Part shown: positions 10,611 through 36,567 of the stretch, piece by piece
Position numbering within the stretch: position 1 is the stretch's first letter
Layout of the letters: every line of letters begins with the position of its first letter
Source: Deltaproteobacteria bacterium
GTDB lineage: Bacteria; Myxococcota_A; UBA9042; DTJE01
Reading direction: 5' to 3'
Assembly (NCBI GenBank): GCA_029555025.1
Contig: JAKPTZ010000115.1
Coordinates: forward strand, 24,898-88,897
DNA: 64,000 nt
Position numbers and translations under genes: made by a program
The notes under the pieces: model-generated
The model's database searches: none
What the model was told of the DNA's origin: nothing
What the model saw: only the letters and a program-made list of their open reading frames with translations

Positions 10611-10692
10611 CGTCTGGCTCCAGAACGGTTTCGCGAAAGCCTATCACGATTGACGGAAAGCGGGGGACTCTCAAAGTTTGCCTTCCGGGGGA

Positions 10693-12318: not shown

Positions 12319-13832
12319 ATCGCGTCGCCTTCGCCACCGGAAACGACCATCTGTTCCACGTCGCCATCGGGATAGAAGCGGACGTAGTCGAGGGCTTCGA
12401 TCACGGACTTGATGAACGTTCTGGTCGATTGTATCCGGTCGGCCGTGTACAGCAGCCTGAACAGCCTGTCCTGGCGCTTCTTCTCCAGTTTCACGCCGTA
12501 CGTGGTGTCATAAGTGCGGCATATCCTGCGGAAAAGCTCGCGAAGCTGATCCATTGAAAGGACATCGACCTGGACCCTTGTAATCGTTTCCCTGGTCCGG
12601 CTGAATTCATCCTGGAGCGTGCCCGGAGTAAGCGCGAACGCGACCTTCAGGGCACCGGGAATTCCGGTGGTGTATCTGACGGGGTGATGTGCCGAGTATA
12701 TCAGGCCGGATACCGCGCCCTGGATTGTTTCGGCTCGAATGAGTTCCTCGTCCATGAGTACGTCGTCATCGTTGGCTGTAAGGACAAGCCCGCGGAAGAA
12801 GTTCATTCCGCGCTGGGCCTGGTATCGGTACATTACGCTTCCGGCCACTTCCGCCTCGTCCAGAAGAACCAGCAGGCCCATCATTCCAAGGACTTCCGAT
12901 GCTGCCCTGGCAGTTGCCGAAAGTATGTTGCAGTAGATGTTGGCACAGGTCGAGTAATCGTAAAGCGTCTTCTTGCGCCCGATCCGGCCTTCCCCGCGGG
13001 CTTCGATGAAGTCCCATTCTTCCTCGGTAAGTCCTGGCCTTTCGTGCGGCTCCTCCTCCTGGAGCCGCTCCAGGACGCTTGCAAAAAGCCAGTGGTCGCC
13101 AAGGACATCCCGCCAGCCCGGCCGGGACGCCACTTCACGCCAGAATCCACGGAAGTTCAACACCCGGTCATCAACGACGGCCTTGAATCCGGTGACCAGA
13201 TGCCGGTAAGCCTTCTTGGGAAAAGCTGCCGATGCCTCGGATGGATCGAAACCCGCCATGGCGACCGCGTAGCCCAGTTGCTCCGCTTCGCCCGCCAGGA
13301 ATCGCAGCAGGTGGCTCTTGCCCGCGCCGTAGGCCCCTTCCACCAGGGCTGCGCCCTCGGCATGGTCGTGAAGGAATTCCATCAGTTGCCCGACTTCATC
13401 CTTGCGCCCGACCGTCCACTCCCCGATCGATGAAGATGGCACGATCCCAAGCCTGAAGGCCTCTATAGCCATGCTTGCACTGACCGGCCGGTTTTCCGGC
13501 AGCATTCGATACACCGGAGCCCGATGTTTCCTGGCTCCTGCAGGTTCCTCGCTCGCTGGAGCCTGTCCCCCAAGCAGGCGGAGGATTGCGTCAAGGGATG
13601 TGCTGGAGGGTGCCGTCGATCGAACAGCCGGAGCCTCGTCTTCGACGAGCTTCAGCCCTTCACCGGCACGGACAAGTTCCCGCGCCGGGATCCACAGGCT
13701 GTAAACCCCGAAGTTGACACGGAATTCAAATCCGCCAATCCGTGAACCAAGCACCGTGCCGTCGCCATATGTGGCATGCGTCACGGCATCGCCCTTTTCG
13801 AACCTATTCATAGATATCGTCCGGGTCGGCAT
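12315..13832 (-). CDS. BrxD-type (DUF2791-like) P-loop ATPase, paralog B, with N-terminal Tudor/SH3-like domain
   Basis: 505-aa ORF; alternative start ATG at 13811 (MNRFEKGD). Walker A VEGAYGAGKSHLL and Walker B LLVLLDEAEVAGS. The N-terminus FEKGDAVTHATYGDGTVLG resembles the PcrA/UvrD C-terminal Tudor motif. Overlaps the stop of paralog A. Confidence 0.78.
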   Translation of the reverse strand: MPTRTISMNRFEKGDAVTHATYGDGTVLGSRIGGFEFRVNFGVYSLWIPARELVRAGEGLKLVEDEAPAVRSTAPSSTSLDAILRLLGGQAPASEEPAGARKHRAPVYRMLPENRPVSASMAIEAFRLGIVPSSSIGEWTVGRKDEVGQLMEFLHDHAEGAALVEGAYGAGKSHLLRFLAGEAEQLGYAVAMAGFDPSEASAAFPKKAYRHLVTGFKAVVDDRVLNFRGFWREVASRPGWRDVLGDHWLFASVLERLQEEEPHERPGLTEEEWDFIEARGEGRIGRKKTLYDYSTCANIYCNILSATARAASEVLGMMGLLVLLDEAEVAGSVMYRYQAQRGMNFFRGLVLTANDDDVLMDEELIRAETIQGAVSGLIYSAHHPVRYTTGIPGALKVAFALTPGTLQDEFSRTRETITRVQVDVLSMDQLRELFRRICRTYDTTYGVKLEKKRQDRLFRLLYTADRIQSTRTFIKSVIEALDYVRFYPDGDVEQMVVSGGEGDAI

Positions 13833-15093
13833 CTTCGCCGGGCGAAAGCATTCGCGTGGCGAATTCCTCGTCGATCACGGTGTCCGGTTCGAACCGCAGC
13901 GCGTGCATTGCCCGCACGACGGCCTGGACGAACATTCTCTTGTACCCTATGTCGCCAAAGGCGCGTTCGGCGGTCGCATCCGCGAGAACCCTTACCAGAT
14001 TGCGGGTCTGATCGGCCGGCATGCGGAACTGGTAGGCGTTTTCATAGACGCCGCACAGTTTTCTTCCGATGTCGTTCATCAAGGTCTTCGGATCCCTTGC
14101 GATTCGATCAAGCCGGACTTTGACGCCGGTGGGGTTCGTGTAGTCGAATACCGTCTGAATTCTCTGGCGAAGCGCTTCGTAAGCCGGAGATCGGCCCTCG
14201 GTCAGGAACTGCTCGTTTGGAATGGCATAAAAGACCATCGTGTTCGCGAACGAGGAAGCCCCGCACTGATCAACCATCTCGCGCAGGTTGGCCAGCATCA
14301 GTTCCTTCTGCTTGGAAGTCATCGAGCCGGCCTGTTCGGCCTCGTCGAACAGGATGATGATGCCGCCGAAGCGCAGGTTCCGAACCCACGTCACCAGTGA
14401 TCTGATCGTGGCGAACGCCTGGGATCTGTCAATCGGCTGCAGAACCCCTCCAGCCTTGTGCGACAGCCGATCCCAGCCATCGACGGTAAGGTACTGCAGC
14501 ATTGCGTCGAACTGATCCTGGTCATTGCGGGTCAACGCTTCAATGGCAAGTCGGACGGCCTTCCCGAAATTCGGGTTTTCGCAGCCACGAACCGAATCGG
14601 CCGCAATTGCCCTGATGCGATCTTCCAGTTGTTCGCCGGCGATGCCTTCCTCTTCGGCGATGGCGGTCTTCATGTCGTGATAGACCGCCTTGATGAAGGC
14701 GCCGAGCCCGCGCTCCCCGCCGGTCAGGAGTTCATCCGGCGTCAGTGGACGCATCAGGTTGACCGCGATGGACTTGTAAACCATGTCCAGGCGGTGGAAC
14801 GGCGACGATTCCGCCGAAAGCGGGCAGTATGTGACCAGGTAGTCATGACGCCAGGCAAGCTCGCGGACGCTGTACAGGAAGTGTGTCTTGCCGCCGCCAT
14901 ACGTTCCGACGACGACTTTGAACGACGACCCGCCTTCGCGGACGAATGACTTGAGGTAATCGTCCTCGATCACCTTCAGGTACCCGTCAAGGCCCGAGGA
15001 AAAGAACTGGAAACCCCATTCGGGCGGGGTTCCGGACGAACCGACCACTTCGATAATGTGGCGGGCCTGCCTGGCGGTCAGGTTGTCAACCAT
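13804..15093 (-). CDS. BrxD-type (DUF2791-like) P-loop ATPase, paralog A
   Basis: ORF 13804..15243. The start is preferred at 15093 (MVDNLTARQARHIIEVVGSSGTPPEWG), which leaves a 31-nt gap to the upstream gene. Walker A VVGTYGGGKTHFL and Walker B IIILFDEAEQAGS. Family assignment is from memory of BrxD/DUF2791 sequences, not from a search. Confidence 0.78.
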   Translation of the reverse strand: MVDNLTARQARHIIEVVGSSGTPPEWGFQFFSSGLDGYLKVIEDDYLKSFVREGGSSFKVVVGTYGGGKTHFLYSVRELAWRHDYLVTYCPLSAESSPFHRLDMVYKSIAVNLMRPLTPDELLTGGERGLGAFIKAVYHDMKTAIAEEEGIAGEQLEDRIRAIAADSVRGCENPNFGKAVRLAIEALTRNDQDQFDAMLQYLTVDGWDRLSHKAGGVLQPIDRSQAFATIRSLVTWVRNLRFGGIIILFDEAEQAGSMTSKQKELMLANLREMVDQCGASSFANTMVFYAIPNEQFLTEGRSPAYEALRQRIQTVFDYTNPTGVKVRLDRIARDPKTLMNDIGRKLCGVYENAYQFRMPADQTRNLVRVLADATAERAFGDIGYKRMFVQAVVRAMHALRFEPDTVIDEEFATRMLSPGEDADPDDIYE

Positions 15094-15124
15094 CTGAAAT
15101 CTCCCGTTCCTGAGTCGTCCAAAC

Positions 15125-15988
15125 TCAGGCAGTAACCTTAACAAACCGGAGCGTTGCGAAGTTAACGCCCTCAAGGATTCCAGGTCTCGGCACCCAGAGG
15201 TGATCCCCGGCATTCCTTGTCTGGGACATCGTCGCCACGTCAAGCCTCAGTTCCATTCCCCGGATGATCCGGTTTCTGAGCCTTGACAGATCCGCCGCGA
15301 ATTCCACCCTTCCGTACGACCTGAAGGTCTCCTTTCGCGGATCAATCAGGAAGGCCGGCTTCTGGCGCATAAAGGCGATTTCCGGGATCAGCGACGTGAC
15401 CGGCACGCGGCCCCCGGACTCGGCACCGGTGCGTATCACGGCCAGCCGGTAAGCCTTTTCAAGTTCGGCAAGGAAAGCCGGCTCGTCGAAAGAATCCGGA
15501 AAGAGCCTGCCGTTCTGTTCCCGGATCTGCGCGCAGATGTCTTCGGGATCCAGAGAAGCCGCCGCCAGCCTGTATTTGCCGGGTCCAAGCCATATGGTGC
15601 ACAGGCCCTTTGAACCGAATGTGAATTCCAGCGAGAAAGGCCCGGCCGTCAGCGTGGGAAGGTTTCCGGACACCTTGAAGTCTTCTTCGTTCAGGCGTTT
15701 TGCGACCGCTCCCGCAAGCAGCGCCTTCTCGCGATCAAGGCGGCTGCGGGATTCCGACAGCGTCGCCGCAATCGCCGCCTTCATTGCCGCGGCGCCCGTT
15801 TCCAGCCCGGCGATGTCCCCGATTGCCCGCAACGCCCTTTCGGCCATGTCGATTGATGATGCCAGGTTCCCCTTGCGGTGTTCCCTGGAGAATTCCTCAA
15901 CCGACTTTCCGGCGTTGGCGGCAGCCTTGATGGCCTTCAGGAACGTCTTGACCTGTTCTTCCATGGGCTTCCCCCGGGGTTGCTTCAT
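15125..15988 (-). CDS. hypothetical protein (first gene of the ATPase-helicase cassette)
   Basis: 287-aa ORF with normal amino-acid composition and no TM or signal peptide. Same strand as paralog A and tightly spaced with it. I recognise no family. N-terminal helical part (EEQVKTFLKAIKAAANAGKS), C-terminal mixed part. Confidence 0.62.
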   Translation of the reverse strand: MKQPRGKPMEEQVKTFLKAIKAAANAGKSVEEFSREHRKGNLASSIDMAERALRAIGDIAGLETGAAAMKAAIAATLSESRSRLDREKALLAGAVAKRLNEEDFKVSGNLPTLTAGPFSLEFTFGSKGLCTIWLGPGKYRLAAASLDPEDICAQIREQNGRLFPDSFDEPAFLAELEKAYRLAVIRTGAESGGRVPVTSLIPEIAFMRQKPAFLIDPRKETFRSYGRVEFAADLSRLRNRIIRGMELRLDVATMSQTRNAGDHLWVPRPGILEGVNFATLRFVKVTA

Positions 15989-17076: not shown

Positions 17077-17309
17077 CGGCCAAATCCGGGTTGTCCATTT
17101 TCGGACAAGTGAAAAAGTACGTCGCGGATTGTAACATGGATCCGTCCGGGCCGGGCCGGACGCCTTCGCGCGCCATGCCGTCAGCCAGAGTGCCGGCCCT
17201 TGTCTGGCGGCGCGTTTCGGGCGATCATGCCGGCTGAAGCGGTCTGAATGTTGTGCGGGGATTGTCTGCCGGGCGTCGCAAGTCGATCGCCGGGCATCGG
17301 AGATTCCAG

Positions 17310-20300
17310 ATGCGAACCGGGTCTTCCGGGATGTTGCCGGTCGTTGCGATGGCGTGTCTATTTGTGTCGTCGTGCGGCAGCCATGTGGAGAAGGCCGATA
17401 TCGGGGGCTCCTGCCGGGAAGACTCCGATTGTCAATCCGCCCTCTGTTTCGCAGACGTATGCATCGATCCCCTGGCGGACCAGGATTGGGACGGTCTTTC
17501 GGCGGGCGATGAAGTTGAAATCGGGCTGGATCCGTTTCACCCGGACAGTGATCGCGACGGCATTCCCGACGGCCTGGAAGTGGGCCCCGAGCTTGCGACT
17601 CCGGCGGATTATGACGGGGACGGCGTCATCGACGCTCTTGAGTCCGCTTTTTCGGATTCTGACGGGGACTGCCTTCCGGATCAGTATGATCCTCTCGATG
17701 CGCTCGGGCCGGCCGGCTCAAGTCAGATGGTGCCGGTGCTGTGCATGACAGCCGGGGTCTGCGGGGCCGCAATGAACACCATTGTCGCTACCTGCGACGG
17801 CTCGAAGGTAACGTGCAGCTATGAAGGCGTGCCAGGCTGGAACGCCGCGGAATGGATGTGTGACGGAAAGGACAACAACTGCGACGGTCGAACCGACGAA
17901 GGTTTTCTTCACGAAGGCTTGTCCATCGGACTTCCCTGCCTTGGGGCAGGAAGTTGTGGCCCGGGTATCGTCGAGTGCGATGACTCGGGCTTTTCGACCA
18001 GGTGTTCGTCAAACCCCGGCGCTTCTGGCGACAGATCCATGCCCGAGGTGTGCGACGGTCTCGACAACGATTGCGACGGCTTGACCGACAACGGCATGTC
18101 GTGGAAGGGCGTGCCCCTCGGGGAACGTTGTGACGGCGAAGGCGAGTGCGGCATCGGCAAGGTCGAATGCCTGGCCGACAGGACGGCTTCCTGTTCAACC
18201 ATGAAGGGTGGAAGTCACGAACAGATCCAGGAGGAATCCTGTGACAACCTTGACAACGACTGTGATGGACGAACCGACGAGACATTTTTCGGCAACGCTT
18301 CCGAACTGTGCGTTCCCCGCGGCGTCTGCGCCCTGTTCCCCAACATGATTTCGTTGAAGTGCGAGCAGGGGATCCTGAAATGCGACTTCAGTGCTGTGCC
18401 TGGGTATTCGGGAAGTTCCGAGATGTTCTGTGATGGACAGGATGACGATTGCGACGGGCTGGTTGACGAGGAACTGTCGTTCGCGGTGACCGAACCTGGC
18501 GCCGTGATAAGGCTTCCCGGCCAGTCCTGCGGTTCGGGCGCCTGTGCCGGCGGGGTCGTCACGTGCTCGCCGAGTTCGATGTCCGGCATGTGTTCCACCA
18601 CGCCCCTTGCCGCGCCGGAGAAGTGCGATGGAATCGATGACGACTGCGACGGGTACATAGACAACGGTTTCGCCCTGAGTTGGAAGCCGGCGCTTGAAAC
18701 CATCATGGACAGGGAGCCGCAGGCGCTTGTTTCGTCGCGGATGGCCGTGGTCGAGTATTCCCTGGAGGATCCGCCTGAACCAGGTGAACCGCCTGCCGGC
18801 ATATATGTATGCGGCGGGGCCGTTGGAAGTCCTGAGAACGGTTCGTCCGGGATTTCAAGGCGTTGCTGGCTGTACAGCTTTGATTCGCATCGTTTCGATC
18901 GACTTCCCGACGGGCCCGAAGTCGATTCGGGGGCGATGGTTCATGACAGGGCGGGCGGAAGCCTGCTGATGGTGGGTCGTCTGTTCGCGTCCGGCGAAGT
19001 CGCCGTTTTCCGGATGAACGGAATCGATTTCGGATGGAGCAGGCTGCCCTGGGAACTGGAAAGTGGCGAGGTTCTTGCCGCCGGAGTGGATCCGGTTGAA
19101 AACACCCTGAATATCCTCACGAATGGTGATTCCGGGCTTCTGGTGAGCATGGTCGGGCTGTCCGATGGCTCCGTCCTGACCGTTCAGGCGGGCGAGCGCG
19201 TCTCTGCCGGCTCCTTTGCCGCCGGTTCGCCCTCCGGGGGGTTTGTCCTGTTTCATGCCTGCAACGAGCTTGCCGGCACTGTGGTCGAACATGTCTCGCC
19301 GGACGGGCAGGTCAACGGGCTGCCGCTTGCAGGACAGAGTCCATGCATGTCCTTCGGCGCGGCGGTCATGCCGATCCCGGGACGCATCGTCGCGATTGAG
19401 GGCAGGGCACTTGACGGCTCGGTCCAGGCCACAAGGGAATTCCTGCTGGGCGATGACCTGTGGCACCACGAAAGGATCACGGTTCCCGGCGGCCAGGGAT
19501 CCGTCATGCATCCCGCGATGGCCTCCTCTGGCGACACCGTCTATGCATTTTCCGGGGAGTATGGTGATGGAGGGGCACTGCGGCGTGTGATCCGGCTGGA
19601 TCGCGAATCGACGGAATGGCTGGTTGACAGCTTCGTAAGCGGTCCATCTCCCAGGGCGGGCGGCGTTGCGTTCGTTTCGCGCCTGACGGCGGCGGCCTAT
19701 TTCATTGGCGGCTATTCGGATGAACCGGGCGGGCCTCAGCCAGTCCAGGATGTGTGGAAGATTGATCTGGTCAATCCGCGGATTGGACAGATTGCGGTGT
19801 CGGGCGAACCAGGGGCGGTTATAGGTGCTGCTGCGGCCATCAATGATTCCGGCCAGACCGCCTACATTTTCGGGGGGCTCGATTCGCCGCCGGGGCCCGA
19901 CTCCAGGCCGGTTAGCAGGTTCCTTCGGTTCAACTGCATTCAGTCGAGGTTTGATTCGATTCAGTCGGGGGAAGGCGGTCCGACGGCACGTTATGGACAC
20001 TCGCTTGTCTGGGCCGGTGACAGGTTGCTTCTTTACGGCGGCCTGAACGACACCGGTTTCCTTTCCGATCTCTGGTCCTGGGCTCCGGACGAAGGCTGGA
20101 TCTTCATTGGATATTTCGAACTCAGCTATGGCCACCAGGCGTTCTGGGACAATCCCGGCAAGCGCATGCTGGTCGTCGGGGGCAGGCCAGGTGGGGGCCT
20201 TCGCGCATACTATCCCGCCACATCCACGTGGAAAAGCCTGCTGTCCGGGGTTCTGTTCGATTCGTATGAAGGCCACGGCTGGTTTGACGAGCAATCCGGC

Positions 20301-20522
20301 AGCGTGCTTTATCTTTCATCGACATCCAGCGACGCGGTGGTCGTGACTTTCCTTGAAGACGGGCTTGTCGATCAGGTCATCCCCGGACTGCAGCCGGATT
20401 TGATCGATGCGTTCGTGGTTTATGATCCGTTCGGGCGCCGGGCCATGATGCTCGGTGGCAGGGATCCCTCGAACGGGACCGTCGGAACCGTTTCGCAAAT
20501 CGATCAGTCCTGCGGGCGATGA
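17310..20522 (+). CDS. lipoprotein with thrombospondin-type-3-like Ca-binding repeats, five MopE-type CDGxDNDCDG motifs and a C-terminal Kelch-like propeller
   Basis: ORF 17253..20522; start preferred at 17310 or 17331. Lipobox LFVSSCGS and DxDxDGxxD repeats. Five MopE-type motifs: CDGKDNNCDGRTDEG, CDGLDNDCDGLTDNG, CDNLDNDCDGRTDET, CDGQDDDCDGLVDEE, CDGIDDDCDGYIDNG. Kelch-like ARYGHSLVWAGDRLLLYGG. Confidence 0.8.
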   Translation: MRTGSSGMLPVVAMACLFVSSCGSHVEKADIGGSCREDSDCQSALCFADVCIDPLADQDWDGLSAGDEVEIGLDPFHPDSDRDGIPDGLEVGPELATPADYDGDGVIDALESAFSDSDGDCLPDQYDPLDALGPAGSSQMVPVLCMTAGVCGAAMNTIVATCDGSKVTCSYEGVPGWNAAEWMCDGKDNNCDGRTDEGFLHEGLSIGLPCLGAGSCGPGIVECDDSGFSTRCSSNPGASGDRSMPEVCDGLDNDCDGLTDNGMSWKGVPLGERCDGEGECGIGKVECLADRTASCSTMKGGSHEQIQEESCDNLDNDCDGRTDETFFGNASELCVPRGVCALFPNMISLKCEQGILKCDFSAVPGYSGSSEMFCDGQDDDCDGLVDEELSFAVTEPGAVIRLPGQSCGSGACAGGVVTCSPSSMSGMCSTTPLAAPEKCDGIDDDCDGYIDNGFALSWKPALETIMDREPQALVSSRMAVVEYSLEDPPEPGEPPAGIYVCGGAVGSPENGSSGISRRCWLYSFDSHRFDRLPDGPEVDSGAMVHDRAGGSLLMVGRLFASGEVAVFRMNGIDFGWSRLPWELESGEVLAAGVDPVENTLNILTNGDSGLLVSMVGLSDGSVLTVQAGERVSAGSFAAGSPSGGFVLFHACNELAGTVVEHVSPDGQVNGLPLAGQSPCMSFGAAVMPIPGRIVAIEGRALDGSVQATREFLLGDDLWHHERITVPGGQGSVMHPAMASSGDTVYAFSGEYGDGGALRRVIRLDRESTEWLVDSFVSGPSPRAGGVAFVSRLTAAAYFIGGYSDEPGGPQPVQDVWKIDLVNPRIGQIAVSGEPGAVIGAAAAINDSGQTAYIFGGLDSPPGPDSRPVSRFLRFNCIQSRFDSIQSGEGGPTARYGHSLVWAGDRLLLYGGLNDTGFLSDLWSWAPDEGWIFIGYFELSYGHQAFWDNPGKRMLVVGGRPGGGLRAYYPATSTWKSLLSGVLFDSYEGHGWFDEQSGSVLYLSSTSSDAVVVTFLEDGLVDQVIPGLQPDLIDAFVVYDPFGRRAMMLGGRDPSNGTVGTVSQIDQSCGR

Positions 20523-22419: not shown

Positions 22420-23958
22420 TCAGTCCTCGACCGGCAATGGATCGGTGAACGCGGAGAATCCGGGATTCGCGACGGAGCACATGGTGAAGGTTGCCCGATA
22501 GTCAAGGTTGCCGGAAATCTGGATTGGTCTTTTGAGGCTTTCGGTCGATGTCACGAAAACCTCCCGGTCAATCAGGTGCTGCTGGGTCGCGGCGGTAAGC
22601 GGCTGGCCTGATGAATCGCGGATGGCCGTCCCGACAAATGACAGGAAGCGCCCGGACGGGGAAAGCGACATGCTGTCCGGCGACACCGAAATCATTTCCG
22701 GCGCCCCAACCTTTGGAAAGTCCGTGATCTTTCTGAATATGTCCGTAAGATTCGCGTCCGTGCCGATGTCGCTGACGGAGAATGCCAGGATGTTGGTCCA
22801 TGTCTTCCCGGGGGCGCCGTCACAGGTCGATGCCGCGGCGACGATCAGTTCCCGGCCGTCGCGGGAAAGCAGCAGGGGCTGCATGATCGAGGTGTACGGC
22901 CAGTCCCTGTTCAGGTTGTAACATGCGTTTGAAGCGTATCGCGACGGAGTCCTGACCAGCGTCACCGATTCAATTGAACCACTTTCCACGTCCATCTTCG
23001 CCAGCCGGAGTTCGCGCGCGTCGAAGACGTGGGCGAACAGCAGGGTTCGCCCATCCGCTGAAAGGATCGCCGGGATGTCGTCCGAAAGCTGGGGGGCATC
23101 CTGGGAATACATGCACTTGCCCTGAAGGTCAATCGCCTGGCACACCGGTACGCCGGCCTTTCTAAGGCCTGCCTTTTCGTTGAACAGGTAAAATGTCAGG
23201 GATTCAAGTTCCAGATTCTGCAGAACCAGCGTGACACCGTCCGCGCCGAGCCTGAACCTTCCGGTGTAGTTGGAGCTGCCCGCAAGATCCGGCCCCGGGA
23301 ACTCAAACAACTCCTGGATTTCAAAAACGGGATCATCAAGGTCGATCCGACCGAAGCGATAGCAGGTCCGTATTCCGCCATCCTTTGATTCGCAATCATT
23401 TTTTACCCTGGAAACGTAAAGTGACCTTCCCGAAAAGACTGCCTGGCGAACGGCCGGGATCGGCTGCTCCGTAACGATTGTCGGTTGTCCTGTCTCATCG
23501 ATGGCGATAAGCCTGGCGTCCTGTCCCGGTGTGCCGACGCCCGTTGTCGTCGCCACGAGCAGGAAGTTGAGGGCGGGTTCCGTCACGCAGCCCAGGGAGC
23601 AGTCGAGTCCCAGAGGGGCGAGGATCCTTGCGTTAACCTGGAAGTTGTCCTTCCATGCCGGGAAGCCGGGCTGCCCCTCGCCGTCGAGCGGGTTGGAAAT
23701 CCCGAGGTCGCCGGGCCTGTCGCCCGCCGTGGCCGCGTATCCGTAGATAACGCGAAAGTCTTCATCGACCTCGACCGGATCAAGGTTCGGAATGTCAGGG
23801 CCGGCGTCGGTAATCACGGTGTCCGTATCGCCGCCGACATCGCTTTCCGATTCCTGCCCGGCGCACCACGGGGCCGAAACAAGAGTGGCCGTGGCAAGCA
23901 GGAATGTCGGCCATGACGCGACCCTGCGGCCCGAAACGGTGGCAATGCGCTTCCTCAT
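22420..23958 (-). CDS. secreted hypothetical protein (beta-propeller-like)
   Basis: ORF 22420..24072. Start preferred at 23958 (MRKRIATVSGRRVASWPTFLLATATLVSAPWCAG, a signal peptide). Repetitive beta-strand-rich body with SxDG(R/K)xL strings as in TolB-like propellers. Function unknown. Confidence 0.62.
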   Translation of the reverse strand: MRKRIATVSGRRVASWPTFLLATATLVSAPWCAGQESESDVGGDTDTVITDAGPDIPNLDPVEVDEDFRVIYGYAATAGDRPGDLGISNPLDGEGQPGFPAWKDNFQVNARILAPLGLDCSLGCVTEPALNFLLVATTTGVGTPGQDARLIAIDETGQPTIVTEQPIPAVRQAVFSGRSLYVSRVKNDCESKDGGIRTCYRFGRIDLDDPVFEIQELFEFPGPDLAGSSNYTGRFRLGADGVTLVLQNLELESLTFYLFNEKAGLRKAGVPVCQAIDLQGKCMYSQDAPQLSDDIPAILSADGRTLLFAHVFDARELRLAKMDVESGSIESVTLVRTPSRYASNACYNLNRDWPYTSIMQPLLLSRDGRELIVAAASTCDGAPGKTWTNILAFSVSDIGTDANLTDIFRKITDFPKVGAPEMISVSPDSMSLSPSGRFLSFVGTAIRDSSGQPLTAATQQHLIDREVFVTSTESLKRPIQISGNLDYRATFTMCSVANPGFSAFTDPLPVED

Positions 23959-24080
23959 CCGGTCATGCTCCGCGCAATTCAAGGTCAATCTTACCGTTGT
24001 TTGCCATTTGAGTTCCATCTGAAAGGTGATATAATATCGACCCTTTTTCCCCTTTGGCCTTGCGCCTGGCACTGGAGTTT

Positions 24081-25583
24081 ATGACCCTTAACATCACTGA
24101 ACTTGAATCGGTTATCCCGGAGATTCAACTTGCCGTTCGCGGTTCCATTCTTACGGGTGTCGAAAGTCCCGATCAATGGACCTGCATTCTTTCCTTCTCC
24201 AGCGTTGACGGCGGGCCCGTGAAGCGGGTCTTCTTCTCAAGGCGTCCCAGGCTGACCAGGTTAAACCTGCTTCCGGACGGCTGGACCTCGCCCGCGCAGA
24301 ACATCGGTCGCCGGTCAATCGAGGCCGTAAAGTTCGTCGATGCCGTCTCCCGTGCATTGAAGGGCGCCGAGGCGGGTCCGATGAGGACCCGTTTCCGTGA
24401 CCGGGTCGTTTCGATGGAAATGTATCTGCCGAAGGATTCGGGCCGTTCGGACGGGTCGGATGACCAGCCGGTCAGGATGTTCCTGCTTTTCGAATGCACC
24501 GGAATGCATGCGAATCTGTTTCTTCTCGATGAGAGGCAGGTCATTCAGGCAGTGTTCGGGCGTTCGACGTCGCGCAGGCGTCCCCTGGACGTCGGCTGCA
24601 GGTACCAGCAGCCCGCCGAAATCGAAGGGCCCAGGCCTGTCGGGCGGCGTGTCGATGTGATGCGCTTCGTAAGGTCGGACATGTCCCTGGGACATCAGAT
24701 AAGCGAAATGTACGATCCCCTGGATCAGGTTGACGACCGCAAGCGCGAGCTTTCCTCGCTTGCCGAGGAACTGTCGTTCGTGGTCGAGGAAAGGCGCAAG
24801 GTTGCGGAGTCGGTTCGCAGGGATCTGGCCGAGCCGGTTCGTCCGGGGCGGCCTGCGGATCTTCCAGAGCGTCTGCGGGAACGGCTTGACCGCGTCGATT
24901 CAGAGGTGCGCGAGCTTCAGGAACTGCTTCATGGCGTACGCAAGGGCGACGTCAGCGTTTTTGATCGCGCGACGGAACTTGTTACAGAGTACCGCGCGAA
25001 GATCCAGGAAATCGAGCGTCGCAGGGCTGAACGTCCGGCCCGTCCCGACTGGAGGCCGCGTGAAGGCGGATACCAGCGCCGCGACGACTCGCCGCGTCCA
25101 CCCAGGGAAGGCGGTTACAAGCCGCGCGAAGCCGGACACCAGCGCCGCGACGATTCGCCGCGTCCACCCAGGGAAGGCGGTTACAAGCCGCGTGAAGGCG
25201 GATACCAGCGCCGCGAAGATTCGCCGCGTCCACCCAGGGAAGGCGGTTACAAGCCTCGTGAAGGCGGATACCAGCGCCGCGACGATTCGCCGCGTCCACC
25301 CAGGGAAGGCGGATACAAGCCTCGTGAAGGCGGATACCAGCGCCGCGACGATTCGCCGCGTCCACCCAGGGAAGGCGGTTACAAGCCACGCGAAGGCGGA
25401 TACCAGCGCCGCGACGATTCGCCGCGTCCACCCAGGGAAGGCGGTTACAAGCCACGCGAAGGCGGATACCAGCGCCGCGACGACTCGCCGCGTCCACCCA
25501 GGGAAGGTGGTTACAAGCCGCGCGACGGCGGCGCTCGCGGAACGCGGTCGGCTTCGGGCCGCACCGTCAGGCGGTCAAAGTGA
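24081..25583 (+). CDS. NFACT-N (RqcH/FbpA N-terminal) domain protein with coiled coil and R/G/Y/P-rich tandem-repeat tail
   Basis: ORF 24054..25583; start preferred at 24081 (MTLNITELESVIPEI). The block ...DRVVSMEMYL...MFLLFECTGMHANLFLLDERQVIQAVFGRS..RRPLDVGCRYQQP follows the NFACT-N pattern (E.mGrhsNl.L.D....I). A charged helical segment follows, then 7 x 22-aa repeats. I see no NFACT-R/DUF814. Confidence 0.75.
   Translation: MTLNITELESVIPEIQLAVRGSILTGVESPDQWTCILSFSSVDGGPVKRVFFSRRPRLTRLNLLPDGWTSPAQNIGRRSIEAVKFVDAVSRALKGAEAGPMRTRFRDRVVSMEMYLPKDSGRSDGSDDQPVRMFLLFECTGMHANLFLLDERQVIQAVFGRSTSRRRPLDVGCRYQQPAEIEGPRPVGRRVDVMRFVRSDMSLGHQISEMYDPLDQVDDRKRELSSLAEELSFVVEERRKVAESVRRDLAEPVRPGRPADLPERLRERLDRVDSEVRELQELLHGVRKGDVSVFDRATELVTEYRAKIQEIERRRAERPARPDWRPREGGYQRRDDSPRPPREGGYKPREAGHQRRDDSPRPPREGGYKPREGGYQRREDSPRPPREGGYKPREGGYQRRDDSPRPPREGGYKPREGGYQRRDDSPRPPREGGYKPREGGYQRRDDSPRPPREGGYKPREGGYQRRDDSPRPPREGGYKPRDGGARGTRSASGRTVRRSK
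25056..25517. repeat. seven tandem 66-bp coding repeats (unit ccgcgtgaaggcggataccagcgccgcgacgaytcgccgcgtccacccagggaaggcggttacaag; PREGGYQRRDDSPRPPREGGYK)
   Basis: Units counted by eye at 25056, 25122, 25188, 25254, 25320, 25386 and 25452. Each differs from its neighbours by only a few bases. A degenerate partial unit follows. Confidence 0.95.
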
Positions 25584-25629
25584 CCACGTCATCTCCGATT
25601 GATCTTTTTTTTATTAATTTCAGTTTGAA

Positions 25630-26160
25630 TCAGTCGAGGGTCTGCCAGGACTTTCCAAGCGTTCCGTGCTTCACGGAAGTCCGCCGGCTTTCACCGTCCG
25701 GCCCCTTCAGAAGCAGGAAGTAGGTCACGTCAAGGCCATTCCTGCCCTGGCGGGCCTGGCTCGTCGTCACGCTTCCGGTCCAGTTCGCGTACTTGCCGCC
25801 GAGCAGTTTGACCGCGGCACCCTTCGGCACGATTGAAGCGGGCGCGACTGGTGTTGCCGAGCGTGAACCCTTTCTTCGGCGAACTACCGTCTTGTGGCCG
25901 GCAGTCGCCAGGTTGTCGATTGTCAGGAATTTTGATGCCGATTTGGAAAGGCCGCAGTCGGCAAGGGCATCAAGGAAGCTGGATTCTCCATGCGCGCCTT
26001 TGAGGAAGTCGATCAGGTTCCTGATTATCCGGCTTTTGGATCTTCTGGCCTCCGAAAGTTCGGTGAACTGCGCGTCGATGACATTGAAGTCCTCGATGTG
26101 CTTCTTCAGATCCTTCAGATAGACGTCGGCGATGGTGCTTTCAGGAGTATCGGGTTTCAT
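25630..26160 (-). CDS. hypothetical protein (orphan, flanked by AT-rich spacers)
   Basis: ORF 25630..26211; start preferred at 26160 (MKPDTPEST). N-terminal helical half. The C-terminal half, KGAAVKLLGGKYANWTGSVTT, is reminiscent of a KOW/SH3-like motif. No family recognised. Confidence 0.5.
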   Translation of the reverse strand: MKPDTPESTIADVYLKDLKKHIEDFNVIDAQFTELSEARRSKSRIIRNLIDFLKGAHGESSFLDALADCGLSKSASKFLTIDNLATAGHKTVVRRRKGSRSATPVAPASIVPKGAAVKLLGGKYANWTGSVTTSQARQGRNGLDVTYFLLLKGPDGESRRTSVKHGTLGKSWQTLD

Positions 26161-26469
26161 CAATATTCCCCACGTGAGAAGTCGTTGTCGTGGCGGCCGG
26201 TTGCCGCGCATCCTGAATCATATTCTATTGGCTGACCGTTGATGTCTGTATATGTCAATTTTACAACTGCTTGGATTGACAACAGTATCACAGGCGGTCA
26301 ACTGTTTACCGTCCGGTCTGATTGACGGTTTGTTTACATTTGCATAACAAGGGTGAAGGTCGATTGACTGTGGGTTGTATTCCGGACTATTCTTCGGGCG
26401 GGAGCCCCATGCCGATCAAGGCGCGTTGCCATTGATTTCGCGGGGGTGTGAAGTCATCTGGAGGTTTTC

Positions 26470-31549: not shown

Positions 31550-33742
31550 ATGAATGAACGCGCAATGAACGAACTTCAAGAGATCCGATCGTTGACGTCG
31601 GGATACATGCCGGGCGCCGATCTGCAAAGGGTCGAGGATGTCCTTGAACTGGCGCGGGTCGAATCCGGCGGCGATCCGTCGGTGCTTGCTGCCGCGATGC
31701 GGATTGTTCGACCGGTGTGCCGTTTGAAGCTGGACGTGCCGTCGATATGCGCCGCCATCGCGCTGGCAATGCCGCCCGGGCCGGACGGCGGTCCATCCAC
31801 GCGTGGCCTGGACGAGGATTCGGCGCGCCTGGCCGAGGGCGTCATCGGTCTTGGTCGTTTCCAACTCCTTTCCAGCAAGTCCGGGCAGGCGGAGGCATTC
31901 AAGAGGATGCTGGTCGCGCTTGCCGGCGACATCCGCGTGTTGCTGGTCAAGATGGCCATGCGCCTGGCGGAGCTTCACCAGACCTCGGACGATCCAGGGG
32001 CCGAGCAGATCCGGGTCGCCGAGGAAGCGATGATGATTTACGGCCCGCTGGCGGAAAGGATGGGTATTTCCTGGCTGCGGACCGAGATCGAGGACGAGGC
32101 GTTCCGCGTCATGAGGCCGACCGAATACGCTTCCCTGAAGCTGGCGGCGGATCGGCGTCTGGCCGAGCGGCAGGAATTCATCGCGGGCGTCGTCGGGCGG
32201 CTTCAGGCGATGATCGTTCAGGGCGGGCTGGCGGGGTTCGAGGTTTTTGGACGCCAGAAGAACCTTTACGGCATCTGGAAGAAGATGCAGATCCAGGGCA
32301 TCGAGCTTGAACAGGTCTATGATTTCGTGGCCTTCCGCGTGATCGTGCAGAAGCCGGGCGACTGCTGGCAGGTGCTTGGGCTGGTTCACGATACATGGAC
32401 GCCCATTCCGGCGCGCTTCAAGGATTTCATCAACGTTCCAAAGCCGAACGGCTACCGGTCGCTTCATACGTCGGTATTCGGCCCGCTTGGCGAGCCGATG
32501 GAAATCCAGATCCGTACATGGGAAATGCATCGCGAGGCAGAGTCGGGAATCGCCGCGCATTGGTCGTACAAGGAGTCGGGCCGAATCGAGGTTCGGGATT
32601 CCGAGCGCCTGGGCTGGATGAAGCAGGTTGTTGAATGGGCCCGCGAGATTCAGTCGGGCCGTGAGACCGAGCAGGGGCCGCTGATCGAGGAAGCGCGGGA
32701 AGGACTGCTGGTCGATCAGGTGTTCGTGTTCACCCCGCAGGGCGACCTCAGGGTTCTTCGGCAGGGGGCCACCTGCCTGGATTTCGCGTACGACGTTCAT
32801 ACCGAGGTCGGTCATTCGTGCACCGGCGTGCGGGTTAACGGCCGGCTGGTGCCGTTGTCAACCGAACTGGTTTCAGGAGACGTGGTCGAGGTGATGACGT
32901 CCAGGACGGCCAGGCCCCGCAGGGACTGGCTGAATTTCGTGGTTTCGTCCAAGGCCAGGGCGAAGATACGAAGCTGGTTCCTGGAACAGGACAGGCGCGA
33001 GGCGCTCGAGGTCGGCCGCCAGCTCCTGGAAAAGGAGTTCCGTCGGGCCGGCGCCCATGTAGTCAAGTATTTCAAGGAACTGCTTCTTGACGAAGAAAAG
33101 GGCCGGAAGGTTGCCGAGTCTTTCCGCATCGGAAGCCGTGACGAACTCATCAGGGCGGTCGGTCACGGTCGCGTGTCGGCGGCCGATGTCGTAAAGGCGG
33201 TTGTTCCAGTCGCCGCCCCGGGGGTTCCCGAACCGGAAAGGCCCGAAATCCTTCCGAAGAAGCTGCGCAGTCCGACTGGGATTGAGGTTGACGGGATTGA
33301 CGGCATGATGGTGCACATTGCGCGTTGCTGCAACCCGATCCCGGGCGACGGAATTGTCGGATACGTCACCAGGGGAAGGGGGGTGACAATTCACACGGTT
33401 TCCTGCCGGTCGGTTCTGGACGGTGATCCGGAGAGGGTGCTTCCGGCAACCTGGAACAGTGGCTCTGGCGGTACCTTCAACGTGCCGGTAAGGATTACGG
33501 TGCGCGATGTCCCGGGCATTCTGGCCGGCGTCACCACCGAGATCGGCAGGCAGGGCGCGAACATCGCCGGGGTCTCGACGAAGCGGGACGACAGTGGATT
33601 GCAGCAGGTTGACGTGGTTCTGCAGGTTGCCGATCAGTCCATGCTGGACGGAATCGTCCGTTCGGTTCGACGGCTGCGCGGGGTCGTCGAGGTCATGCGG
33701 GTTCGCGGGCCCGGTGTCTCGGCGGTCGCCGAACGGCGCTGA
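31550..33742 (+). CDS. relA: long RSH (p)ppGpp synthetase, RelA-type (hydrolase motifs not visible)
   Basis: 730 aa. Synthetase core GYRSLHTSVFGPLGEPMEIQIRTWEMHREAESGIAAHWSYKE. TGS domain (VFVFTPQGDLRVLRQGATCLDFAY...VNGRLVPL). C-terminal ACT (ITVRDVPGILAGVTTEI). Confidence 0.9.
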   Translation: MNERAMNELQEIRSLTSGYMPGADLQRVEDVLELARVESGGDPSVLAAAMRIVRPVCRLKLDVPSICAAIALAMPPGPDGGPSTRGLDEDSARLAEGVIGLGRFQLLSSKSGQAEAFKRMLVALAGDIRVLLVKMAMRLAELHQTSDDPGAEQIRVAEEAMMIYGPLAERMGISWLRTEIEDEAFRVMRPTEYASLKLAADRRLAERQEFIAGVVGRLQAMIVQGGLAGFEVFGRQKNLYGIWKKMQIQGIELEQVYDFVAFRVIVQKPGDCWQVLGLVHDTWTPIPARFKDFINVPKPNGYRSLHTSVFGPLGEPMEIQIRTWEMHREAESGIAAHWSYKESGRIEVRDSERLGWMKQVVEWAREIQSGRETEQGPLIEEAREGLLVDQVFVFTPQGDLRVLRQGATCLDFAYDVHTEVGHSCTGVRVNGRLVPLSTELVSGDVVEVMTSRTARPRRDWLNFVVSSKARAKIRSWFLEQDRREALEVGRQLLEKEFRRAGAHVVKYFKELLLDEEKGRKVAESFRIGSRDELIRAVGHGRVSAADVVKAVVPVAAPGVPEPERPEILPKKLRSPTGIEVDGIDGMMVHIARCCNPIPGDGIVGYVTRGRGVTIHTVSCRSVLDGDPERVLPATWNSGSGGTFNVPVRITVRDVPGILAGVTTEIGRQGANIAGVSTKRDDSGLQQVDVVLQVADQSMLDGIVRSVRRLRGVVEVMRVRGPGVSAVAERR

Positions 33743-33834: not shown

Positions 33835-36567
33835 ATGAAGCGTTTTCAATATGTCATCTGTCTGACCTTTGCGGTGTCTGGATTTGCCGGCTGCGGTGGC
33901 GGCAATCAGATTGGCGACGTGGTCGGGGATGTTCCGGACGAGGATAGGATTGTCGAGTTGGACGTCACGCATGACGAAGGTCAGCCTGACGAAGGCAGGG
34001 ACATCGGAAGGGACGAAGGCGAGCCTGGCGATTCCGTGGATGACCGCTTCGTGGATGATTCCGACGTAAACGGCGATATCGACGACATCGACGGCGGTGA
34101 CGAGTCCGGGGGCGATACCCCTGAAACGGACGGGTGCCCCGGCGAGACGTGCGAGCCGTGCCCGGACGACGGCCTGTTCTGCACCGAGGAGTATCGCGAT
34201 TCGCTGGGCGAATGCCAGATTCGCGTGAAGCCCGAATTCTGCATGATTGGCGGCGAATGCCTTTTCGAGAACCAGCCTTCCCCCGATGACATGTGCCTGG
34301 CTTGCAGGCCGGCCGTCAGCGGTTCCGAGTATTCCCCCGCGGAAGGGATGCCGTGCGACGACGCGGATCCGTGCACTGCCGGCGACACCTGCGATGCGGA
34401 CGGCATTTGCCAGCCGGGCGCCGGTTTCGGATGCGATGACGACAACGAGTGCACCATCGACCGTTGCGACCCCAATTTCGGATGCACGAACACCCCGCGG
34501 GCTTCCACGTGCGACGACCACGATTCGTGCACGTACCAGGATCAGTGCAATGTCCAGACCGGCGTCTGCAAGGGTTTCCCGGTCAACTGCAACGATGGTA
34601 ACGAATGCACCCGTGACTATTGCGATTCGTTCGACGGTTGTCAGCACGAGCCCATTTCGAAGGCTTGCAACGACTTCGACGGGTGCACCTTGAATGATAT
34701 GTGCAATGAAGACGGCGTCTGCCAGGGCACTCCGATGGACTGTTCGGACGGTATTGAATGCACCGTCGATTCCTGCATGTCCGGCGTCTGCCTGAACGAC
34801 TGGCATTACGGCCCGTGCAACGACGGCGACATGTGCACGGATAACGACTTCTGCAATGGTTATCACGAGTGTGCCGGCATCCCGAAGACATCATGCGACG
34901 ATTACAACGTCTGCACCACGGACTACTGCGACCCGGCGGTCGGATGCGTGAACGAATTCAATACGGTCGAGTGCGAGCCCGATTCGGCATGCGAGATAAA
35001 CGGCGTGTGCGCCGGCGGCGTGTGCGTCGGCCAGCCAAGGAACTGTGACAAGGGCAATCCGTGCATGATCTATTCGTGCAATCCGGACACGGGCTGCAAG
35101 GAAATTCCGACAACCGGCGTGTGTGACGACCACAACGCATGCACCATCAACGAAAATTGTTCGACCGGAGCATGCATTCCGCCTGAAGGGCCGGCCGGCG
35201 TCACGAACTGCGACGACTTGAACGACTGCACCGTTGACAACTGCGTTCCGGCCGTCGGTTGCGTGCATACCCCGCAGGAAGGCGAATGCCAGGATCCGAA
35301 TCCGTGCAGCCTGACCGGAACCGGTTTCTGCAGGAACGGCGAGTGCATTTCGAACGTCAGGGACTGCGATGACAACCAGCCGTGCACGCTCGACACGTGC
35401 GACGGCGCGGGCAACTGCATCCATCCGCCGATTTCGGGATTCTGCGATGACGGCAATCATTGCACGTTCGACGAGGTCTGCATCGGCGGCGACTGCATCG
35501 AGGGAAAGAAGGTAGATTGCAACGACTCAAACGTATGCACGCTGGACGAATGCAACCCGGATTACGGATGTGTCTATACGCCGACCGGCGGTTCGTGTTC
35601 CGACGGTGACGTCTGCACCATCAACGACGGGTGCGCAAACGGCACCTGCGTCGGGACGGTCAGGGCATGCGAGGACTACAACGTCTGCACCGACAACGGC
35701 TGCAACAAGACTTCGGGATGCTTCTTCACGCCGAATTCGGTGGAATGCGACGACTTCAACATCTGCACATTCGACGACATCTGCGGCGCCGGTGAATGTC
35801 ACGGCGTGTCGGTGTTCGAGGATCCGGCGACCAAGGCCGCGACTTTGACTTATGGCGTCAACGGCAATCTCGGCCAGGGCGTCGATGTTGATGACGACCC
35901 GTCCACATGCGCGCCGAAGGGCAGTTGCGTCCAGGGTATCGACAACGCGTTTTCCAGGCTGCACTGGCTGTTCAACACCGAGATGTTGAACGCGTCGTCG
36001 GACGGCTCGTGGTCGCTGCTGCTGGAACACGACGGGTTGAAGGTGAACGGCACTGCGTATAACCTGAACCTTTACTGGGGCGCCAGGATTGACCCGGTGA
36101 CCTGTGACCCGACGACTTCCGGATGCAACTACGGCGTCTATACGTCGTCGTTGTCGCCAACCTGCGGGCCGCTTGACGTGTTCGACAACGCGGTGATCAA
36201 CGGCACGAAGCTGAAGGCGGGGGGTGCCACTTACGAAGTCCCGGTCAGCATCGTCTTCGGCGACACCAGGCGCGAACTGGTGCTTTACCGGGCCAAGGTC
36301 ACTGCCAACGTGTCGCTTGCGGGCGGCAAGGTCGTTGGCGGGGCCGGCGCGCTTGGCGGGGCATTCGTTGTCCAGCAGTTGGTCGAAGCGCTTGAATCGA
36401 TGCCGGAAAGCGCGTTCCTGCCGCGTTACAACAAGGAAATCATTCTTGCGTATATCGACATATACCTGAAGCCGGACATCGATCTTGACGGTGACGGAAC
36501 CGATGAGTCGGTTTCCGTCGGAATGCCGTTTTCGATTGTGACAGGTCACCTCATTGGCCCGATTTAA
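33835..36567 (+). CDS. lipoprotein with ~20 tandem 4-Cys modules (Myxococcus-type cysteine-rich repeat) and an unrelated ~290-aa C-terminal domain
   Basis: 910 aa with lipobox AVSGFAGCGGG and an acidic linker. Repeated CxDxNxCTxDxCxxxxGCxxxP modules alternate with CxDxxxCTxxDxCxxGxCxG modules, for example CDDDNECTIDRCDPNFGCTNTP and CDDHDSCTYQDQCNVQTGVCKGFP. Confidence 0.85.
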   Translation: MKRFQYVICLTFAVSGFAGCGGGNQIGDVVGDVPDEDRIVELDVTHDEGQPDEGRDIGRDEGEPGDSVDDRFVDDSDVNGDIDDIDGGDESGGDTPETDGCPGETCEPCPDDGLFCTEEYRDSLGECQIRVKPEFCMIGGECLFENQPSPDDMCLACRPAVSGSEYSPAEGMPCDDADPCTAGDTCDADGICQPGAGFGCDDDNECTIDRCDPNFGCTNTPRASTCDDHDSCTYQDQCNVQTGVCKGFPVNCNDGNECTRDYCDSFDGCQHEPISKACNDFDGCTLNDMCNEDGVCQGTPMDCSDGIECTVDSCMSGVCLNDWHYGPCNDGDMCTDNDFCNGYHECAGIPKTSCDDYNVCTTDYCDPAVGCVNEFNTVECEPDSACEINGVCAGGVCVGQPRNCDKGNPCMIYSCNPDTGCKEIPTTGVCDDHNACTINENCSTGACIPPEGPAGVTNCDDLNDCTVDNCVPAVGCVHTPQEGECQDPNPCSLTGTGFCRNGECISNVRDCDDNQPCTLDTCDGAGNCIHPPISGFCDDGNHCTFDEVCIGGDCIEGKKVDCNDSNVCTLDECNPDYGCVYTPTGGSCSDGDVCTINDGCANGTCVGTVRACEDYNVCTDNGCNKTSGCFFTPNSVECDDFNICTFDDICGAGECHGVSVFEDPATKAATLTYGVNGNLGQGVDVDDDPSTCAPKGSCVQGIDNAFSRLHWLFNTEMLNASSDGSWSLLLEHDGLKVNGTAYNLNLYWGARIDPVTCDPTTSGCNYGVYTSSLSPTCGPLDVFDNAVINGTKLKAGGATYEVPVSIVFGDTRRELVLYRAKVTANVSLAGGKVVGGAGALGGAFVVQQLVEALESMPESAFLPRYNKEIILAYIDIYLKPDIDLDGDGTDESVSVGMPFSIVTGHLIGPI

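Follow-up and report, generated by a model that had tools for sequence, protein, structure and literature searches.

The stretch of DNA analyzed here, 64,000 nucleotides of contig JAKPTZ010000115.1 (assembly GCA_029555025.1; hereafter the window), comes from an uncultured, Anaeromyxobacteraceae-like bacterium of the phylum Myxococcota and carries, at 24081..25583 of the plus strand (stop codon counted), the coding sequence of a 500-amino acid protein related to RqcH. RqcH of Bacillus subtilis (YloA; PDB entries 7AS8, 7AQC, and 7OPE) is the bacterial homolog of Rqc2/NEMF and performs poly-Ala tailing on obstructed 50S subunits. The window protein keeps the tRNA-reading head (NFACT-N) and the helical arm of RqcH and has lost three further standard parts, namely the double helix-hairpin-helix (HhH) module, M hairpin, and NFACT-R.

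The open reading frame (ORF) listing gives 24054..25583 (plus strand), which opens at a TTG and encodes 509 amino acids; this alternative start would add nine residues to the protein. Because all of the orthologs that we recovered start with MTL, as does the product read from the ATG (MTLNITELESV), and because a GGAG at 24074-24077 lies ahead of ATG 24081, the latter codon, which had also been chosen in the original prediction, is the likely start.

Anatomy of the protein

The NFACT-N domain spans residues 1-160 (24081..24560, plus strand), as supported by Pfam, profile alignments, an AlphaFold2 (AF2) model, and Foldseek. Pfam NFACT_N (PF05833) matches residues 7-217 over profile positions 4-204 of 456 (E = 3.8e-6) with a score of 26.4 bits, below the gathering cut-off of 31 bits, and phmmer with residues 1-335 alone against PDB sequences returned nothing significant, so that profiles were needed. 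A five-sequence profile of the clade that shares the C-terminal tail matches the NFACT-N crystal structures 3DOA and 6PON in the PDB (E = 2e-6), and a profile of the 35-sequence family described below matches B. subtilis RqcH (7AS8 and 7AQC; E = 2.4e-76). In the AF2 model of residues 1-340 (mean predicted local distance difference test (pLDDT) score 72.9), this part is a β-rich fold with scores of mostly 76-91 over residues 11-160 and dips at residues 72-75 and 122-126, and 11 of 11 significant Foldseek matches in the PDB are PavA, FbpA, RqcH, NEMF, or Rqc2 (6pon, E = 2.3e-9). Thus, the N-terminal ~190 residues, which the original prediction had assigned to NFACT-N, do score and fold as such by Pfam, both profiles, and Foldseek, with the correction that the folded part covers only about residues 1-160.

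The DR and EIM loops of RqcH come close to the anticodon of the tRNA, and their mutation abolishes tRNA binding (bioRxiv 10.1101/2020.09.03.281279). D107-R108 of the window protein aligns with D97/R98 of the DR motif in profile alignments to RqcH, 3DOA, and 6PON. E138 aligns with E121 of EIM (E121/I122/M123), the I-M of this motif being replaced by C-T here and by C-S in relatives. Over the 35 family clusters no change is seen at L3, R60, R108, E138, N145, S164, R167, or Y175, and D107 is nearly invariant (at least 90%). A reading of the protein as a fibronectin-binding adhesin was considered and rejected, as no signal-peptide-like hydrophobic stretch could be seen by eye at the N terminus and the conserved role of the family is ribosomal (PMC4075521).

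The head is followed by a 42-residue linker (residues 161-202; 24561..24686, plus strand), which is predicted to be unstructured (pLDDT below 50 over residues 163-207 in the AF2 model), takes the place of the ~95-residue double HhH module of RqcH, and holds an R195-F196 pair that is conserved in the family. The family profile aligns with RqcH residues 12-170 and resumes at residue 268, leaving the paired HhH (171-267) unmatched; by this comparison of profile and RqcH, the two HhH motifs that should follow NFACT-N are absent not only here but from the whole subfamily. Next comes a long two-helix coiled coil, on which two independent AF2 models agree and whose helices are shorter than those of RqcH. 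Helix 1 (residues 203-250; 24687..24830, plus strand) is helical in both models and aligns with CC1 of RqcH from residue 268, its pLDDT being below 50 at residues 203-211 and climbing to ~90 over residues 220-250. Helix 2 (residues 261-317; 24861..25031, plus strand) is modeled as helices 261-287 and 291-317 with a kink at 288-290 (pLDDT ~90). The original prediction of charged helical sequence over residues ~215-330 is therefore confirmed as a coiled-coil hairpin, with its limits moved to residues 203-317.

At the hairpin tip, where RqcH has its M hairpin, the AF2 model places a loop of 10 residues, E-P-V-R-P-G-R-P-A-D (residues 251-260; 24831..24860, plus strand). The M-hairpin motif (phi-x-phi-[DN]-P...) was looked for at the tip and was not found, EPVRPGRPAD standing there instead; it is seen in the relatives P0013 (ILLDPKISPSEN), P0006 (LQLDPRLPPAQDL), and P0015. 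The replacement is itself conserved, with P252, R254, G256, R257, P258, D260, and L261 invariant in five orthologs of the tail-bearing clade.

NFACT-R, the RNA-binding domain that carries a DxWxH motif, is absent by every measure applied. Neither PF05670 nor PF18297 matches the 500-residue protein in Pfam, and an NFACT-R hidden Markov model (HMM) built from 15 relatives gave no match at E <= 1e-3 when run over the 64-kb window in every one of its six frames. The same model readily detects the domain at the related genome loci L010, L012, and L013. Around the truncated genes at loci L001-L009 it found none within 10 kb on either side, with the downstream coverage of L001, L007, and L009 reaching only ~2-4.5 kb. 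The absence of NFACT-R (DUF814) noted in the original prediction is thus borne out, no frameshift or assembly error was found to conceal the domain downstream (the six-frame scan being negative and a convergent ORF beginning at 25630), and the loss is in fact larger than had been stated, since the HhH pair and the M hairpin are gone too.

In place of NFACT-R, the protein ends in a disordered C-terminal tail (residues 318-500; 25032..25580, plus strand) made of seven copies of the 22-residue unit [K/R]PREGGYQRRDDSPRPPREGGY, followed by a basic end (...RDGGARGTRSASGRTVRRSK; in the tail protein sequence, ...PRDGGARGTRSASGRTVRRSK). The underlying DNA repeat (25055-25531, plus strand; Tandem Repeats Finder period 66 bp, 7.2 copies, 95% matches, 0% indels, score 842) is far beyond chance. 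Hence, the seven repeats that had been predicted for the last ~170 residues are real, lying as 22-residue units within a 180-residue tail. In a full-length AlphaFold model residues 320-500 have pLDDT scores of 30-35 and no secondary structure. By composition, residues 321-500 contain 23.9% R, 17.2% G, 16.7% P, 8.3% D, 8.3% E (D+E 16.6%), and 7.2% Y, with a net charge of +21. The tail is rich in Arg and Gly, yet its description as RGG-type did not hold: the 180 residues contain no RGG triplet, the only RG and the only GR both lie within the last 20 residues, and Arg and Gly are otherwise always separated, as in R-E-G-G-Y. Because it lacks the triplet, the tail cannot be called an RGG box, and we describe it as a D/E-R-Y-G-P polyampholyte. 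Variant codons among the seven units comprise six synonymous and four nonsynonymous changes, as would be expected if the reading frame of the tail is under selection. No other ORF with a similar D/R/Y/G tail occurs in the window or at 17 related genome loci.

Relatives, gene order, and constraint

To collect relatives, residues 1-335 were run with HMMER exhaustively against 1.84 billion cluster representatives (E <= 1e-3), and only 35 proteins (clusters at 50% identity) were recovered. All 35 match Pfam NFACT_N. Only 13 match NFACT-R_1; the other 22 are without NFACT-R, and these are proteins of 187-376 residues that stop once the coiled coil is complete, many of them in a short stretch rich in Arg and Pro. 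A word-indexed homology search gave five matches, tail words having filled the candidates, and a single match with the N-domain only, in which the clade of the query was not recovered; as it was uninformative for the family, we relied on the exhaustive scan. Genome loci, sought on the basis of a 10-sequence family alignment, come from metagenome-assembled genomes (MAGs) labeled as uncultured Anaeromyxobacteraceae, Myxococcales, Myxococcota, "Deltaproteobacteria," and, in one case, "Oligoflexales." NCBI names the truncated members "NFACT family protein" and the complete ones "NFACT RNA binding domain-containing protein."

The truncated genes occupy the ancestral position on the chromosome. The order HAD hydrolase, 550-residue ORF (minus strand), NFACT gene (plus strand), 193-residue ORF (minus strand), and Cys/Met-pyridoxal phosphate (PLP) enzyme is common to the NFACT-R-less loci L001-L009 and to the NFACT-R-bearing loci L010 and L012, with the 193-residue ORF missing in some. 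Thus, the truncated genes are positional orthologs of the complete ones, and NFACT-R was lost in place. In a neighbor-joining tree of NFACT-N domains (a rough tree with no support values, outside which stand the later-found loci L014-L017), NFACT-R-bearing proteins are basal and NFACT-R-less forms are scattered around a nested NFACT-R-bearing group, a pattern that suggests that NFACT-R was lost more than once. The window protein itself nests inside the subfamily, where it and L001-L004, P0002, and P0004 together form a monophyletic clade; L014-L017 have the same kind of N-terminal domain and tail as this clade. We regard the anatomy and the evolutionary history as secure and are highly confident of the identity and history taken jointly, that is, that the gene is this lineage's own descendant of RqcH (NEMF/NFACT family). 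Because NFACT-N, the coiled coil, and descent are in evidence but the HhH pair, M hairpin, and NFACT-R are missing, we file the protein as an RqcH-derived variant and not as RqcH.

Long repeat tails (100-350 residues, D/E-R-Y-G-P) are found only in the window protein, L001-L004, L014-L017, P0002, and P0004, and they are found in all of these, so that no ortholog of the clade is without its tail. The clade's sister group, P0012/L011 (271 residues), has lost NFACT-R and has only a 21-residue basic end, and the NFACT-R-bearing P0005, P0017, and L010 also have Arg/Pro/Gly-rich C-terminal tails. Domain loss and tail growth are therefore separate events. The proposal that the tail replaces NFACT-R accordingly stands as a statement about position, but not as one about history, given a sister without a long tail that has lost the domain and relatives that have Arg/Pro-rich tails and keep it.

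The orthologous tails resemble one another in composition and are built from different units. The unit is a 17-residue PRPEGGYQRRDDNDRRP in P0002, P0003, L002, L014, L015, and L017 and GGYPRRDDR[DAT]xRPPRPE (~17 copies) in P0004 and L016, and the tails of L003 and L004 are built from PEGGYR/PDGGYRRRDDDAPRSPRPPRP and from RGYAPRSDAPRSSEG / DRGSSYAPRDAAPRGDRP, respectively. Near-identical genes of the window species have four units (P0001) versus seven (the window), and those of a sister species have 8, 10, or at least 12. The survey of repeat number suggested in the original prediction therefore finds variation in both copy number and unit, between assemblies as well as species, and we conclude that both change quickly between and within species. 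The counts themselves should be read with care: L002, L003, and L004 (~11.2-11.4 kb) have runs of N inside the tail repeat, and the contig of L015 ends inside it, so that the copy number, and even the C-terminal reading frame, is unreliable in short-read MAGs.

Several observations argue that the gene is neither a pseudogene nor an artefact. Over residues 1-320, pairwise comparison with four orthologs (Nei-Gojobori) gives dN values of 0.26-0.47 with dS saturated, and a dN/dS ratio, where computable, of 0.11-0.24; judged by these substitution patterns, NFACT-N is under purifying selection in a gene that lacks NFACT-R. The ORF is intact in at least five species-level lineages (48-59% identity), the same architecture recurs in independent NCBI, ENA, and JGI assemblies, and the functional residues are conserved.

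In the window, the NFACT gene stands between a divergent gene of 550 residues (22420-24072, minus strand) and a convergent ORF of 193 residues (25630-26211, minus strand) that begins 47 bp past its stop codon. This arrangement makes the NFACT gene monocistronic, and the closeness of the convergent ORF leaves no room 3′ for another domain. Between the NFACT gene and the divergent ORF lies a promoter-like site (24008..24035, plus strand), in which TTGAGT, a 16-nt spacer, and a TG-extended TATAAT precede the ATG by ~45 nt; it is a putative site from a consensus scan alone, with 10 of 12 consensus matches and a TG before the -10 hexamer. A Pfam search of the 550- and 193-residue neighbors returned no match. 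The former has a hydrophobic N-terminal stretch that ends in Cys, like that of a lipoprotein, and is the divergent neighbor of the NFACT gene at 11 of 13 genome loci, those that keep NFACT-R included, the exceptions being L008 (where the contig ends) and L013; its place beside the gene probably reflects merely a conserved gene order. The latter, a conserved hypothetical protein, is kept as the convergent neighbor in L001-L004 and L007-L010. Two off-frame ORFs that run through the repeat (24730-25602, plus strand; 24982-25497, minus strand) were set aside as by-products of GC-rich repeat DNA, and the Pfam match of the first to "Thyrotropin-releasing hormone" (TRH; E = 4.6e-10) was set aside as a low-complexity artefact.

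The rest of the window is ordinary chromosomal DNA, encoding SecDF, a Lon-like protease, a DEAD helicase, BrxC/D-like ATPases, an RluD-like pseudouridine synthase, IspG, the HAD hydrolase and the Cys/Met-PLP enzyme, tRNA-Glu, -Lys, and -Gly, an NtrC-type regulator, an aldehyde dehydrogenase, and RelA/SpoT. A nearby tRNA-Ala, sought as a contextual clue, is absent, the tRNAs of the window being those for Glu, Lys, and Gly. A further ribosome-associated stress factor lies 6 kb downstream from the NFACT gene: a full-length RelA/SpoT (HD, RelA_SpoT, TGS, and ACT domains; 31550-33742, plus strand), which belongs to a separate transcription unit. A co-directional block on the minus strand (8178-15243) contains the Lon-like protease (LonB AAA, LonC helical, and Lon_C domains; 810 residues), the DEAD/Helicase_C protein (541 residues), and two BrxC/BrxD-family ATPases (505 and 479 residues) and looks like a BREX-related or other defence-type module; the synteny of its ORF at 13804-15243 extends to L002-L004 and L007. 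The window also encodes three Cys-rich repeat proteins of very large size, at 17253-20522, 33835-36567, and 45836-51199, with MopE metal-binding motifs and a Kelch propeller, Dicty_CTDC repeats, and Dicty_CTDC repeats and three lamin-tail domains, respectively. Our impression is that secreted Cys-rich repeat proteins are common in Myxococcota.

A possible role on the ribosome and its alternatives

In B. subtilis, RqcH makes only two contacts with the 50S subunit and needs both: NFACT-R meets the A-site finger (H38), and the distal tip of CC-M meets uL11/H44. Its NFACT-N and HhH touch nothing but the P-tRNA anticodon stem-loop (bioRxiv 10.1101/2020.09.03.281279). Against this background, the best explanation of the window protein, in which we place middling confidence, is that it is a descendant of RqcH that still acts on tRNA at the large subunit and whose tail gives it RNA affinity or self-association. 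The protein would work on tRNA in a large-subunit context, either an obstructed 50S with peptidyl-tRNA or a related state, where NFACT-N would read the anticodon stem-loop. The invariant Pro/Arg/Gly tip could stand in for the M hairpin and touch the stalk base. The tail begins exactly at the place of NFACT-R, at the end of coiled-coil helix 2, where NFACT-R would contact the A-site finger. As a basic, multivalent chain, it might supply non-specific affinity for rRNA or tRNA in place of a folded RNA-binding domain; alone or alongside this affinity, it might also self-associate through Arg-Tyr and Arg-Asp contacts. For the tail taken by itself, a ribosome-anchoring role, proposed from its sequence, is a more tentative suggestion than the reading as a whole.

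A number of points weigh against a role at the large subunit. In B. subtilis, mutation of the DWH motif of NFACT-R abolishes 50S association (bioRxiv 10.1101/2020.09.03.281279), and, by analogy, complete loss of the domain could mean that ribosome binding is lost. The HhH module, which helps hold the tRNA, is missing too, and the coiled coil, being shorter than that of RqcH, may not bridge the distance between a P-site tRNA and the stalk base. Nothing more than a short tail is found in the sister lineage and in many further relatives without NFACT-R, so a long tail is unnecessary for whatever job the truncated proteins do. Finally, the window contains neither a second NFACT gene nor an RQC (ribosome quality control) partner, whether an S4 protein of the RqcP/Hsp15 type or MutS2, its sole S4 domain belonging to the RluD-like pseudouridine synthase.

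These points lead to the main rival, namely that the protein left the ribosome after losing both anchors and now has an off-ribosome role as a tRNA- or RNA-binding protein, whether in tRNA binding or sequestering, as an RNA chaperone, or as a condensate scaffold. Both contacts of RqcH with the 50S, NFACT-R and the M hairpin, are gone or altered, and the tRNA-contacting residues of NFACT-N are conserved. Further, loss of NFACT-R is frequent in the family (22 of 35 clusters), as expected if the ancestral role on the ribosome was already relaxed, and the composition of the tail is like that of the DRYG-rich region of eIF4B, which self-associates (PMC11464913). We nevertheless consider this rival unlikely, if less so than the others below. 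The strict conservation of the tip in the tail-bearing clade suggests that it docks on a specific partner, as it would at the stalk base; moreover, the gene stands at its ancestral chromosomal position with NFACT-N under purifying selection, like its NFACT-R-bearing orthologs. It also counts against this rival that we know of no evidence for an off-ribosome function of NFACT-N in bacteria.

Returning to a role at the large subunit, a stronger version of it would make the protein a natural "minimal RqcH," in which NFACT-N and a short hairpin would suffice for a tRNA-directed activity on the 50S and the tail, standing in for the folded NFACT-R, would serve as a fuzzy rRNA anchor or would collect obstructed 50S subunits in a condensate. 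We regard this version as rather doubtful. More improbable still is a split or redundant system, with NFACT-R supplied in trans or a second, full-length RqcH in the cell, and the truncated protein acting as an accessory subunit or as a competitor or regulator. The idea has some support: stand-alone NFACT-R proteins, with a short coiled coil, exist in eukaryotes (CCDC25/Jlp2; PMC4075521), and the family profile matches CCDC25; also, rqcH is present in 61 of 72 Myxococcota genomes as we read the table columns of a study that does not discuss architecture (PMC11633108). However, no NFACT-R was found in the 64-kb window or around the nine independent truncated loci (10 kb on either side, but only ~2-4.5 kb downstream at L001, L007, and L009), and by position the truncated genes are orthologs of the NFACT-R-bearing ones rather than paralogs, as befits the inherited copy.

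It is very unlikely that the gene is a decaying remnant, a truncated RqcH whose 3′ end has been filled by a functionless, slippage-prone, GC-rich repeat. The DNA repeat is indeed young (95% identity), its copy number differs between assemblies (four versus seven units behind identical N termini), and its unit sequence turns over fast between species. Against this stand the intact ORFs and low dN/dS ratio described above, the invariant NFACT-N residues and tip loop, the excess of synonymous over nonsynonymous changes among units, the gene's own strong promoter-like site, and the persistence of the tail's composition and of its GGY / PR / acidic pattern through the turnover of units. An assembly or frameshift artefact that masks a normal RqcH C terminus can be dismissed almost entirely because, although short-read assemblers mishandle tandem repeats and the tail does contain N-runs at three genome loci and a contig end at another, the same architecture recurs across independent assemblies from three sources, a conserved convergent gene begins 47 bp past the stop, and the NFACT-R model is negative in all frames.

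Comparison with known systems

The core of NFACT-N, two HhH, coiled coil, and NFACT-R has been described as universal, traceable to LUCA, and "resistant to domain accretion" (PMC4075521), and a review lists NFACT-N, HhH, CC-M, and NFACT-R as the conserved architecture (PMC8012679). A full-text literature search returned no paper on RqcH homologs without NFACT-R or HhH. Here, HhH is gone from an entire subfamily of Myxococcota, NFACT-R was lost as well in most of its members at the ancestral locus while NFACT-N stayed under selection, and one clade then grew a long DRYG-like tail. Should these proteins still take part in ribosome quality control, they would define a minimal functional unit in which a disordered tail does the work of an RNA-binding domain; if they act outside it, they would point to an off-ribosome job for the tRNA-reading head. 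Either way, they are natural deletion variants for structure-function work on RqcH/NEMF and offer a test of which parts of the rescue machinery are dispensable. The "minimal RqcH" version, if true, would overturn the view, based on B. subtilis, that 50S binding cannot do without NFACT-R and would place a self-associating DRYG-like region, in the style of eIF4B, in a bacterial translation quality control factor.

Among known proteins, B. subtilis RqcH is homologous to the window protein in its NFACT-N, the DR motif and the EIM Glu included, and in its coiled-coil hairpin, and the folds match. It differs in possessing the two HhH (residues 171-267), the M hairpin, NFACT-R (residues ~446-565), and a longer coiled coil, and in lacking the 180-residue disordered repeat tail. 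Closer are the HhH-less Myxococcota proteins of the same subfamily that keep NFACT-R (HOE83004.1, 405 residues; L012/P0025, L010, and L013), which have a common neighborhood with the window protein and the same FEC[ST]G[HM]HPN signature in NFACT-N; the difference is that NFACT-R is retained in them. The truncated proteins annotated as "NFACT family protein" (HOU52933.1, 361 residues; P0009/L005, P0010/L009, and P0012) likewise consist of NFACT-N and the coiled coil without NFACT-R, but they have no long tandem-repeat tail and often end in a short, basic Arg/Pro-rich segment. CCDC25/Jlp2 shows that the NFACT architecture is separable into pieces, the family profile matching it through NFACT-R; it is, however, the reciprocal fragment (NFACT-R only) and eukaryotic, and no such partner was found near the window gene.

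For the tail, the nearest counterpart by composition and disorder is the low-complexity DRYG-rich region of the translation-associated human protein eIF4B (residues ~214-327), which is disordered and is reported to oligomerize in a Tyr-dependent manner, to phase-separate, and to contribute to RNA binding (PMC11464913). The likeness is one of composition and not of homology, and the tail differs in being Pro-rich, strictly periodic, and bacterial. Judged by its residues and modeled disorder, the tail can be assigned to a DRYG-type compositional class (rich in D/E, R, Y, and G, and disordered), which is not a homologous family and for which Tyr-dependent oligomerization or phase separation and RNA binding are documented only in eIF4B. 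Among bacterial proteins, the C-terminal AR motifs of RNase E and the phase-separating RhlB are examples in which a basic disordered region binds RNA and forms condensates (PMC13462270). The relation of the tail to these Arg-rich segments of the RNA degradosome is one of analogy only, between unrelated proteins with different sequence patterns.

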